Shown: piece by piece, positions 39,708 through 47,835 of the stretch
Position numbering within the stretch: position 1 is the first letter of the stretch
Layout: every line of letters begins with the position of its first letter
From: a plasmid
Length of the DNA stretch: 64,000 nucleotides
Sequence record: NZ_CP018188.1
Reading direction: 5' to 3' (one strand)
Position numbers and translations under genes: made by a program
The notes under the pieces: generated by a model
Databases searched by the model: none
Told to the model about the DNA's origin: nothing
What the model saw: the letters and a program-made list of their open reading frames with translations, nothing else

Positions 39708-39857
39708 ATGAAAAAAGATGTAGTTATCGAATCAATTAAAGAAGTAAGTCTTGAAGAGCTTGATCAAATTATTGGAGCTGGGAACGGTGTGTTTAAAACT
39801 ATCTCACATGAGTGTCATCTTAATACCTGGGCATTTCTTGCTACATGTTGCTCATAA
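39708..39857 (+). CDS. lanA: Class II lanthipeptide precursor (lacticin-481 group, SA-FF22/macedocin-like)
   Basis: 49 aa: leader ...[13 protein letters not shown](G) and core [24 protein letters not shown]. Confidence 0.85.
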   Translation: [49 protein letters not shown]

Positions 39858-39885
39858 TAATTATTAATTTAGAGAGAGGAAAATT

Positions 39886-40035
39886 ATGAAAAAAGATGCA
39901 ATTATCGAATCAATTAAAGAAGTAAGTCTTGAAGAACTTGACCAAATTATTGGAGCTGGGAACGGTGTGTTTAAAACCATTTCACATGAGTGTCACTTGA
40001 ATACTTGGGCATTTCTTGCTACATGTTGCTCATAA
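39886..40035 (+). CDS. lanA: Second, near-identical lanthipeptide precursor
   Basis: Differs from copy 1 only in leader residues 5-6 (DA for VV). Core is identical. Confidence 0.85.
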   Translation: [49 protein letters not shown]

Positions 40036-40281
40036 TTTTTGATGACTAAGTATCTACATTGTTATATAAAGAAGAGGGAAACCTCTTTTTTTTATATGAT
40101 GAATTTTGTTTATTTATTCATTCATGTAGTTCATATAATTTATGACTATATATTAAATTAGAAATTTATCTTGACTTTACTTTGCCTTAAACTTGTCTTT
40201 ATGTTGCAATTTTAGAATCAATTTATAAAGAAAAATAATTTCGAGCCAGACTCGACATGAAATTTAATGAGGTTATAGACT

Positions 40282-40440
40282 ATGAAAAATAATAAAATTC
40301 ATCTAGAAGCTTTGGAAGCGTTACAAGAACTAAAAATGGAAGAAATAGATAATCTTTTGGGCGGAGCTGGTCATGGAGTAAATACTATTTCTGCTGAATG
40401 TCGTTGGAATAGCTTACAAGCTATCTTTACCTGTTGTTAA
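40282..40440 (+). CDS. lanA: Third, divergent lacticin-481-group lanthipeptide precursor
   Basis: 52 aa: leader ...EIDNLLGGAG and core HGVNTISAECRWNSLQAIFTCC. Confidence 0.75.
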   Translation: MKNNKIHLEALEALQELKMEEIDNLLGGAGHGVNTISAECRWNSLQAIFTCC

Positions 40441-40459
40441 TTTTTAGAAAGGTAAGACA

Positions 40460-45339: not shown

Positions 45340-45445
45340 AAAATATCTTGATCTATCTTAATGTTATCTTTAAGATGATAAAGTAGAATTACATTGTAAA
45401 GAAAGGAGTAATCCTGGCTAAAAGGATTACAAGGAAATTAATGAG

Positions 45446-46354
45446 ATGAATAATATTATTGAATTGAAAAATCTTAAAAAGGTCTATAAAGATACTACTA
45501 CAGTGGATCTTAAGAAACTGACAGTCAGAGAAGGGGAAATCTATGGTTTCTTAGGTCCCAACGGCGCAGGGAAAACAACTACGATGAAAATGATCTTATC
45601 TTTGGTGGAGCCTACTTTAGGAGAGATTTTAGTCAATGGTCAAAATATCAAAGAGAATAATGATTACCTAAATCAAATTGGATCGATGATTGAGGAACCA
45701 TCTTATTATCCAAATTTAACGGGATATGAAAACTTATTAGTATTTCAAAAAATGGTAGGTTTTGATGAGGATAATATTTGGCCAACTTTGAAATTAGTTG
45801 GATTGGCGGAGGACAAAAATCGTAAGAAATTAGTGAAAGCCTATTCCCTAGGGATGAAGCAACGTTTAGCCTTAGCTTTTGCTTTAGTTAAAAAGCCCCA
45901 AATTTTATTATTAGATGAACCGACTAATGGTCTTGATCCAGCAGGGATTCATGAAATTCGTGAGTTGATTGTTAAATTAGCAAAAGAAGAAGGCTTAACA
46001 GTCTTTATCTCCAGCCACATCTTATCAGAGATAGAACAAATTGCTGATCGGGTTGGTATTATAAATCATGGTTGTTTAGTTTATGAAGGAGAGATTCGAG
46101 AGATCAAATCAAATACTTGGATTGAGATTGGTGGCGATTTTTCGCAAAATAATATTGTTCAACACTTAGTTGATTTCGGTTCAGTCAGAGTACGGGAAGC
46201 ATCGGCGAGTGAGGTTAAATTAGACGATATGAGTAACGATCGTCTTGCGGATATTATCACCTATATAACCGACCTTGGCTTTAGAATTTTTCGTGTCACT
46301 AGAGAAAGTGAGACATTAGAAGATATTTTTCTGGAACTAACAAAGGAGGTATAA
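45446..46354 (+). CDS. lanF: Lantibiotic immunity ABC ATPase
   Basis: Walker A GPNGAGKTT, signature LGMKQRL, Walker B LLDEPT. Confidence 0.8.
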   Translation: MNNIIELKNLKKVYKDTTTVDLKKLTVREGEIYGFLGPNGAGKTTTMKMILSLVEPTLGEILVNGQNIKENNDYLNQIGSMIEEPSYYPNLTGYENLLVFQKMVGFDEDNIWPTLKLVGLAEDKNRKKLVKAYSLGMKQRLALAFALVKKPQILLLDEPTNGLDPAGIHEIRELIVKLAKEEGLTVFISSHILSEIEQIADRVGIINHGCLVYEGEIREIKSNTWIEIGGDFSQNNIVQHLVDFGSVRVREASASEVKLDDMSNDRLADIITYITDLGFRIFRVTRESETLEDIFLELTKEV

Positions 46355-46355
46355 G

Positions 46356-47099
46356 ATGAGAGGTGTGTACATTGAATGGTTAAAAAGTAGACGAACAAAA
46401 TCTTTTTCAATTGTTACTCTTTTGATGATTGTAGCGACATTGTGGAGTATTGCAATGTTTATGTCTGCTTTTTCGCATCCAGAGTTAAAAAATGTCGGAA
46501 CTTTATTTAGTAATCAGAATGTGAACCTTCTCATGCTTCCTATTGCTGTTTCTGTATTTGTGAGTCGAATTGTGAGTAATGAACGAGAAGGACAGACCTT
46601 TAAATTACAAGCTACAAATGGCTTAGGTTTGATGACGATCTTTAGACATAAATTTTTATTTACAATGGTCTTCTTCTTTGTCATGTCTTTTGCAGAAATT
46701 GTAGCTATCTGTTGCTTTGGAAAACAATCTGGTATCTCAATTCCTATGGACATTGTAGGAGTTCAATTTTTAGGACAATTACTATCTATTTTCGCTCTAG
46801 TTTCTATCTATTTAACGTTAGCAATGGTACTAGAAAAACAAGGCGTATTACTGGCTTTAGGATTGTTAGGAGGTTTTTTAGGAATCGTCTTAAATCCAAG
46901 AAGTTATGGTTTTGCTAGTTTGCTTAATCCGTTGACCGGAGCAGGCAGTTTAGCACCTTATAAGTATCACTTTCTTGGGGATGGGGCATATACCTACCTC
47001 TTGGATCAACAGTTACCTTGGAAACTAGTATTCTTTATGATTTATTGTTTGATGTTATACGGTTTAGCTAATGTTATTTTGAGAAAGAGAGGAAGTTGA
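46356..47099 (+). CDS. lanE: Lantibiotic immunity ABC permease
   Basis: Six-TM protein. Its start overlaps the lanF stop. Confidence 0.7.
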   Translation: MRGVYIEWLKSRRTKSFSIVTLLMIVATLWSIAMFMSAFSHPELKNVGTLFSNQNVNLLMLPIAVSVFVSRIVSNEREGQTFKLQATNGLGLMTIFRHKFLFTMVFFFVMSFAEIVAICCFGKQSGISIPMDIVGVQFLGQLLSIFALVSIYLTLAMVLEKQGVLLALGLLGGFLGIVLNPRSYGFASLLNPLTGAGSLAPYKYHFLGDGAYTYLLDQQLPWKLVFFMIYCLMLYGLANVILRKRGS

Positions 47100-47100
47100 A

Positions 47101-47835
47101 ATGAGACCTTATGTTTTTGCTGAGTGGAAAAAGACTCGCAAATTACAATTGTTCATGATTGGAATGGCATTTTTGGTTTTTTCTAGCTTTATCGGTTTAG
47201 GAGTTTATTTTGCTAATAGGGCTGTCTTAATTGATAAGACACAATCCCTTGTTTTATGGGGACAATTAACATTTTATAACAGTACACTTCTCTATCCTCC
47301 TATGTTAGCCATTATTGTGGGACAGTTACTGATGCCAGAATTTGAGAGAAAAAACATTGAGATGTTAAAAGCTAATCAAGTTTCAATGGATAAATTGTAC
47401 TTTGGAAAACTATTAAGTGGCTTCTTTCTGATTCTTTCCGTCCAACTTTTTTTACTACTTATTTTTGTTGTAGCTGCTAAAGTTGACGGGATTTCGTTTG
47501 ACCTCAGTTTAGCAGTTCATATTAAATGGCTTCTGTTGTCAGTGGTGGCCTCTTTTCCGATAATGACGCTTCAATCCTTCGTAACCGCAAAGACTCGTAA
47601 TTTTAGTAAAGTTGTTGGAGTTGCTACAATTGGTAGCATGTTAAACTTTGTGCTGATTTTTATTAACGAGAATCTTACAAAGTTTTTCCCTTATTCTCAA
47701 CCAATGATTGCCCTACGTAGTCGTTCTTTAACAGATATGTCCTTAATAGATTTGACGATTTTTCTAGTTGTTAATAGTCTATATAGTTTACTTTTCTATA
47801 AATTAACAGTGGCAGCTTTGAAGAAAAACGAATAA
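47101..47835 (+). CDS. lanG: Lantibiotic immunity ABC permease
   Basis: Six-TM protein. Confidence 0.7.
   Translation: MRPYVFAEWKKTRKLQLFMIGMAFLVFSSFIGLGVYFANRAVLIDKTQSLVLWGQLTFYNSTLLYPPMLAIIVGQLLMPEFERKNIEMLKANQVSMDKLYFGKLLSGFFLILSVQLFLLLIFVVAAKVDGISFDLSLAVHIKWLLLSVVASFPIMTLQSFVTAKTRNFSKVVGVATIGSMLNFVLIFINENLTKFFPYSQPMIALRSRSLTDMSLIDLTIFLVVNSLYSLLFYKLTVAALKKNE

Follow-up and report, generated by a model that had tools for sequence, protein, structure and literature searches.

Does a lantibiotic locus of the lacticin 481 group, with three prepeptide genes and a core that lacks one lysine, specify new products, or does it repeat a system that is already known? The question is raised by positions 39708-47835 of a 64,000-nucleotide stretch (the window) of the plasmid sequence NZ_CP018188.1. 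An original prediction, made from the letters alone, had assigned this locus to the lacticin 481/streptococcin A-FF22 (SA-FF22) group, and had proposed that a variant leader/core junction in two tandem prepeptides, together with a more divergent third peptide ('A3'), might give products not seen before. Our analysis bears out the group assignment and the gene inventory, and indicates, with a probability that we put at about 95%, that the region holds the salivaricin G32 (sln) lantibiotic locus in intact form, carried on a Streptococcus salivarius-type megaplasmid. The locus is already characterised, and the junction variant and the third peptide are known features of it, not new sequences. The regulatory layout, comprising three promoter boxes and a terminator, and the conservation of the third peptide's core go beyond what had been noticed earlier.

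Identity of the locus and of its antibiotic core

Three prepeptide genes of the lacticin 481 family, a LanM, a C39-domain LanT and LanFEG are all present at 39708-47835, as seen in the open reading frame (ORF) list and in Pfam matches. The LanRK pair is transcribed divergently at 37371-39450, beyond the interval first proposed, and the full gene order is slnKR / slnA-slnA'-slnA1-slnM-slnT-slnFEG (Table 1). The group assignment is supported by profile matches at several levels. All three prepeptides match PF04604 (E ~1e-24, ~85 bits against a cut-off of 21.7); NF040664, the 'lacticin 481 family lantibiotic' model, is passed by slnA (79.6 bits) and slnA1 (53.4 bits), the two genes covered by the NCBIfam prepeptide scan (cut-off 46); and the LanM scores 434.7 bits against TIGR03897 (cut-off 304). 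The guanine plus cytosine (GC) fraction is 0.27-0.32 over slnK-slnT and up to ~0.36 in slnFE, compared with 0.35-0.44 in the flanks, and the locus thus forms a low-GC island. The flanking DNA has counterparts, at 90-97% identity, in several S. salivarius megaplasmids, and the genes held in common include ERF, JAB/RadC, Paratox and Clp ATPase genes.

The prepeptides encoded by slnA and slnA' differ at two leader residues and are the same from residue 8 onward, so that the shared core described originally is confirmed. In both copies this core begins GNGVFK..., is 25 residues long and follows cleavage after ...IIGA; with four dehydrations it computes to 2666.2 (monoisotopic) or 2668.0 (average). 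Salivaricin G32 was purified from S. salivarius G32 as a peptide of 2667 Da with the Edman sequence GNGVFKXIXHEXXLNXXAFL, corresponding to SA-FF22 without Lys2 (Wescombe 2012, PMC3332205). The core had previously been drawn as a 24-mer beginning NGVFK..., which would weigh 2611. Because the Edman sequence begins GNGVFK, and because the mass of the 24-mer misses 2667, we conclude that the 25-residue peptide is the true core. The missing lysine itself was correctly recognised. Relative to the homologues in S. gallolyticus, S. agalactiae and S. pyogenes, its loss corresponds to a 3-bp deletion of AAA (GGG AAA AAC to GGG AAC) in both copies.

Agreement with the published salivaricin G32 locus extends beyond the core. 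The published genes comprise near-identical slnA and slnA', then slnA1, then slnM; compared with the ScnA leader, that of slnA has five altered residues and that of slnA' six; and SlnR and SlnM are 85% and 63% identical to ScnR and ScnM respectively (PMC3332205). In the window, alignment with the S. pyogenes leader MEKNNEVINSIQ... likewise gives five differences for slnA and six for slnA', and comparison with the S. pyogenes locus (L016) returns 85% identity for SlnR and 63% for SlnM. Since the published sequence, mass, leader counts and SlnR and SlnM identities are all reproduced, we identify the window locus with the salivaricin G32 locus. It shares with that locus, as found in S. salivarius strains G32, YU10 and JH, the gene order, the three prepeptides, the Lys2-less core, the predicted mass and the megaplasmid context.

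Strain YU10 provides the closest comparison. Salivaricin G32 (2667 Da by matrix-assisted laser desorption/ionisation, MALDI) has been purified from it, and its salivaricin G32 and slnA1 genes were reported as 100% matches to the reference (Barbour & Philip 2014, PMC4062538). Over 10.6 kb around the locus, the window has 99.2% DNA identity, across 100% of the length, to the megaplasmid pSsal-YU10 (NZ_MN480763.1), and all three prepeptides are identical between the two. Within the sln genes only scattered substitutions are seen, amounting to 8 amino acids in SlnK, 8 in SlnM, 4 in SlnF, 3 in SlnG and 1 each in SlnR, SlnT and SlnE. The neighbours differ: the window has an IS3 element upstream, whereas YU10 has the salivaricin A locus immediately downstream, which the window does not. 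The slnA' product of YU10 appears in the database as a 50-residue protein beginning 'MMKKD...'; this was rejected as a sequence difference, the YU10 annotation taking as its start the ATT codon immediately before the ATG.

These comparisons bear directly on whether the locus could be a new SA-FF22 variant whose altered junction and third peptide give unseen products. The lysine codon is truly absent relative to SA-FF22/macedocin-type genes, and a product of the A1 gene has never been isolated, both of which fit such a reading. The Lys-less peptide, however, is salivaricin G32, which was purified and sequenced in 2012 (PMC3332205), with a second purification in 2014 (PMC4062538). The 'A3' sequence is an exact match to H6VLK5_STRSL and is identical in YU10, and its core is the same in the S. 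pyogenes, S. mitis, S. gallolyticus and S. equi homologues. Because the prepeptides exactly match deposited S. salivarius sequences and the published slnA, slnA' and slnA1, the claim of novelty is unsupported: the alleles, third gene included, prove identical to characterised ones, and a new variant is very improbable.

The alleles are also widespread. The exact slnA and slnA1 prepeptides each occur on at least 1000 contigs and that of slnA' on 996 (UniRef/NCBI), and the 10,465-bp locus is only 1-3 bases removed from six human metagenome contigs that have the same neighbourhood.

A closely related locus is found outside S. salivarius. That of S. gallolyticus BI02 (NETH01000013.1) has 98.1% DNA identity to the sln genes of the window, with proteins 95-100% identical, and it keeps the AAA lysine codon, thus encoding the SA-FF22/macedocin core. 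Such close identity in a locus that retains AAA points to a recent exchange between S. salivarius and S. gallolyticus and to a very recent 3-bp deletion.

Table 1. Genes and predicted regulatory features of the sln locus, in window coordinates.
Feature	Description	Coordinates	Strand	Basis
slnK	sensor histidine kinase, 454 aa	37371..38735	-	Pfam HisKA + HATPase_c; two transmembrane segments flank a ~120-aa outer loop
slnR	OmpR/PhoB-type response regulator, 232 aa	38752..39450	-	Pfam Response_reg + Trans_reg_C; NCBIfam
P_A	TCTTTA-N5-TCTTAA-N11-TAAAAT upstream of slnA	39557..39590	+	conserved block, 5-species alignment; pattern search
slnA	salivaricin G32 prepeptide, 49 aa	39708..39857	+	Pfam, NCBIfam; exact match UniRef H6VLK3_STRSL
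slnA'	second copy with identical core, 49 aa	39886..40035	+	Pfam; exact NCBI match; identical to YU10
Terminator	intrinsic terminator after slnA'	40063..40097	+	sequence reading, RNA fold
P_A1	CCTTAA-N5-TCTTTA-N11-TAGAAT upstream of slnA1	40185..40218	+	conserved block, 6-locus alignment; pattern search
slnA1	third prepeptide (the earlier 'A3'), 52 aa; predicted core AGHGVNTISAECRWNSLQAIFTCC	40282..40440	+	Pfam, NCBIfam; exact match UniRef H6VLK5_STRSL
slnM	class II lanthipeptide synthetase, 926 aa	40460..43240	+	Pfam DUF4135 + LANC_like; TIGR03897
slnT	peptidase-containing ABC exporter, 690 aa	43267..45339	+	Pfam Peptidase_C39 + ABC_membrane + ABC_tran
P_F	TCTTAA-N5-TCTTTA-N11-TAGAAT between slnT and slnF	45356..45389	+	pattern search
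slnF	ATPase of immunity ABC transporter	45446..46354	+	Pfam ABC_tran
slnE	immunity ABC-2 permease	46356..47099	+	Pfam ABC2_membrane_4
slnG	immunity ABC-2 permease	47101..47835	+	Pfam ABC2_membrane_4

Biosynthesis, immunity and promoter layout

The proteins encoded beside the prepeptides suggest a complete route from precursor to exported lantibiotic. SlnM matches LicM2 (6st5) and CylM (5dzt) among PDB sequences, with the AHG, WCHG and CHGxSGN cyclase motifs aligned, and it is a bifunctional LanM that combines a dehydratase domain with a zinc-site cyclase domain. By homology with SA-FF22 and lacticin 481, it would dehydrate four Ser/Thr residues of the SlnA/SlnA' core and close three thioether rings; on the lacticin 481 pattern these would be Thr7-Cys12, Ser9-Cys23 and Thr16-Cys24, with dehydrobutyrine at position 22 (Dhb22). 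The leader motif EE[LI]Dx[IL][IL]G[AG], common to the slnA and slnA1 peptide types, is of the double-glycine type, and its removal is the probable role of SlnT, an ATP-binding cassette (ABC) exporter with a Peptidase_C39 domain (E 1.4e-36) and a full-length match to PCAT1 (4ry2). Cleavage after ...IIGA and export would release the 25-residue, 2667 Da peptide. SlnFEG would then pump the peptide off the producer's membrane and so confer immunity; the best NCBIfam match of SlnF is TIGR03740 (lantibiotic protection ABC ATPase) at 247.5 bits, under the cut-off of 309.75.

SlnK and SlnR would turn the system on. SlnK is 75% identical to the ScnK homologue of S. pyogenes. The start of slnR is placed provisionally at MNFEAQ, as suggested by homologues and by a GGGAGG ribosome-binding site; the mechanical ORF reaches 39495.

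Ten genes in the same arrangement, RK / A(A') A1 M T F E G, make up the scn locus for streptococcin A-FF22 in S. pyogenes and the mcd locus for macedocin in S. macedonicus, which also share with the window the ring-forming residues, the A1-type core and the three promoter boxes described below. The scn/mcd core carries Lys2 (GKNGVFK...), in contrast to the window core, and FF22-type loci of S. pyogenes have a single A copy where the window has two. Protein identity between the window and the S. pyogenes locus is 63% for M, 75% for T and K, and 35-50% for E and G. The lacticin 481, nukacin ISK-1 and mutacin II group (NF040664) likewise has a single LanM, a C39-LanT, LanFEG and a double-glycine-type leader, and the core pattern T-x-S-x-E-C...T-C-C is common to that group and the window. 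The lacticin 481, nukacin ISK-1 and mutacin II loci have a single structural gene and are not known to carry an A1-type second peptide or an adjacent LanRK.

LanE and LanG fall into two types, respectively 35-50% and 67-75% identical to those of the window (loci L003, L005, L016 and L018). A link between this divergence and the antibiotic core was considered and rejected, as the two E/G types do not track the A core.

Alignments upstream of A (5 species) and of A1 (6 loci) yielded a common promoter pattern, YCTTWA-N5-TCTTWA-N11-TARAAT. It has exactly three perfect matches in the 64-kb window, all on the plus strand, compared with 0.03 expected. The third match, P_F, was not used to build the pattern and is thus independent of its derivation, and the P_A1 block is conserved although the sequence that precedes it carries variable insertions. 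With up to 2 mismatches allowed, the pattern matches the divergent loci of S. agalactiae, S. mitis and S. pyogenes at these three positions and nowhere else. We regard the boxes as candidate SlnR/ScnR operator-promoters. The hexamer repeats, which have an 11-bp period and occupy the place of a -35 element, would suit binding by a regulator of the OmpR/PhoB type, such as SlnR.

Between slnA' and slnA1 lies an intrinsic terminator, with the stem AAGAGG (40072-40077) / CCTCTT (40082-40087), the loop GAAA and a T-tract running to 40093. An automatic terminator scan gave this hairpin on the minus strand only, but sequence reading and the RNA fold show a plus-strand terminator, and the hairpin is conserved at the same position in 6 loci. 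Given the three boxes upstream of slnA, slnA1 and slnF, and the terminator after slnA', three SlnR-dependent units are likely: slnA and slnA' from P_A to the terminator; slnA1, slnM and slnT from P_A1; and slnFEG from P_F. The slnAA' message would be short and abundant.

Whether an intact-looking locus is also an active one is a separate matter, and the locus could be silent or defective in this replicon, serving only as an immunity cassette, as has been reported for many scn, sal and srt loci. Some scnA-positive strains that did not produce were found to be immune all the same (Wescombe 2012, PMC3332205), and decayed or reduced versions of the locus exist in S. vestibularis ATCC 49124 and on the plasmid of Streptococcus sp. 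FDAARGOS_192. In the window, however, the ten ORFs are all full length and equal in length to those of the producer YU10, the three promoter boxes and the terminator are intact, and the exact LanM allele is common, being listed in 788 blocks of the assembly collection. Silence in this replicon therefore seems unlikely.

Several points nevertheless weigh against reading the region as a working salivaricin G32 locus. Identity with the locus of strain G32 rests on UniRef H6VLK3 and H6VLK5, the figures in the published account and the YU10 sequence, not on the reference record JN831266 itself. We infer production of salivaricin G32 by this replicon from its genes, and SlnK, SlnM, SlnF and other proteins differ from those of YU10; many streptococcal lantibiotic loci are silent. 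The binding of SlnR to the boxes and the limits of the transcripts are likewise predicted from sequence, and the overlapping ring topology of the family, with lipid II binding, is assumed by analogy, as only the conserved Thr, Ser, Cys and Glu positions are visible.

The third prepeptide, SlnA1

The core of SlnA1 had been taken to start at HGVN; it probably starts at AGHGVN (or GHGVN). The leader register E-E-[LI]-D-x-[IL]-[IL]-G-[AG], which is common to both peptide types, places the cleavage after ...LLGG and gives a 24-residue core, AGHGVNTISAECRWNSLQAIFTCC. This is the same core that was used for the S. equi homologue (Biswas 2023). The complete prepeptide is identical in YU10 and S. gallolyticus BI02. 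The exact sequence also carries the label 'mcdA1' in one source; this was rejected as proof of identity with McdA1 of S. macedonicus ACA-DC 198, since the label may be a similarity annotation, and the identity that we assert extends only to YU10, S. gallolyticus BI02 and UniRef H6VLK5.

In the A1 core, S. salivarius, S. mitis and S. pyogenes agree at every residue despite 56-77% difference at synonymous sites, and the pooled ratio of nonsynonymous to synonymous differences (pN/pS) is 0.025, compared with 0.10 for the antibiotic core. Leaders diverge freely while the A1 core stays fixed. We conclude from these alignments that the A1-type core is nearly invariant across species and under strong purifying selection.

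This pattern has to be set against the view that slnA1 is a decaying duplicate from which no functional peptide is made. No A1-type product has been detected in YU10 (PMC4062538) or in S. pyogenes, and the ribosome-binding site of slnA1 is weaker and farther away than those of slnA and slnA'. When the A1-type core was expressed with the mutacin II machinery it showed no activity, but the SA-FF22 core was inactive in the same system (Biswas 2023), and the heterologous negative is therefore uninformative. Against decay stand, besides the invariant core, the full set of ring-forming residues and the xEC motif, all of which are kept, and a conserved promoter box that belongs to slnA1 itself. We consider decay an improbable explanation.

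A more speculative possibility is that SlnA1 is a signal and not a second antibiotic. In its modified form (predicted core AGHGVNTISAECRWNSLQAIFTCC, 2508.1 Da after four dehydrations) it may act as the inducer for the SA-FF22 family, a lanthipeptide pheromone that acts across species; we put this forward tentatively, as an idea that could well prove wrong. SlnA1 would be sensed by the outer loop of LanK, and the three SlnR-box promoters would be switched on as a result. It has been reported that pure salivaricin G32 does not induce, whereas, with crude extracts, producer strains of S. pyogenes, S. salivarius and S. dysgalactiae cross-induce each other (PMC3332205). A pheromone role, if true, would account for both observations. 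It would also explain why the A1 core does not vary although drift is seen in the antibiotic core and the immunity proteins, and why K, R and the P_F box are kept in immunity-only remnants. Conservation of the LanK outer loop was considered as support for a conserved ligand and proved uninformative, this loop being the least conserved part of LanK (61-74%).

One metagenome contig in ENA (L019, 2721 bp) carries at 2056-2199 a hybrid gene in which the slnA leader is joined to the A1 core exactly at a shared 8-bp sequence, GGAGCTGG. The fusion removes the slnA core together with slnA' and the terminator; with just one contig to show it, either a natural deletion variant or a misassembly could be the cause.

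Reduced loci, neighbouring genes and implications

Two related loci have lost much of their content. On the plasmid of Streptococcus sp. FDAARGOS_192 (NZ_CP020429.2, 111770-116491) an immunity-only sln remnant retains slnK, slnR, the P_F box and slnFEG; everything between a point just beyond slnR and ~40 bp before the slnT stop codon is deleted. The SA-FF22-type locus of S. vestibularis ATCC 49124 (L009, 5347-8650) is decayed: it has intact K and R genes but lacks M and T, F is truncated, and A and A1 carry stop codons or frameshifts.

Immediately upstream of slnK, the window has an element of the IS3 insertion sequence (IS) family with two ORFs (35278-36917), and a Paratox gene (37086-37271). 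Further neighbours, at 48140-48955, 52903-53823 and 57549-59321, comprise a transposase fragment with a helix-turn-helix (Xre-type) gene downstream of the locus, an APH-family phosphotransferase and a GmrSD-type restriction endonuclease.

A second low-GC cluster, resembling those for ribosomally synthesised and post-translationally modified peptides (RiPPs), occupies 23688-32966. It is built around a radical S-adenosylmethionine (SAM)/SPASM gene (24670-27643) and includes a CAAX/Rce1-like membrane protease. An ABC exporter (27649-29352) and an ABC ATPase (29312-30193) are also encoded there, as are a LytTR response regulator (30988-31716) and a GHKL histidine kinase (31713-32966), but no precursor peptide was recognised. 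The radical SAM gene is split by a 1.75-kb ISSag10 (IS1595-family) element at ~25088-26839; its N-terminal part, with the motif CNLHCVGC, ends at ~25090, and the C-terminal SPASM part resumes at ~26840. The element carries the lincosamide-resistance gene lnu(C) and shares 99.3-99.9% identity with copies in Enterococcus, Cetobacterium and other plasmids.

Taken as it was first stated, the finding matters little, for the region is one more copy of a published lantibiotic locus, common in human oral and gut metagenomes and present also in probiotic candidate strains. Its residual value lies in refinements to the annotation, namely the right core boundaries, the three conserved regulator boxes and the terminator. 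A minor question is also made more precise, that of the role of the strictly conserved A1 peptide and of the signal that induces the SA-FF22 family.

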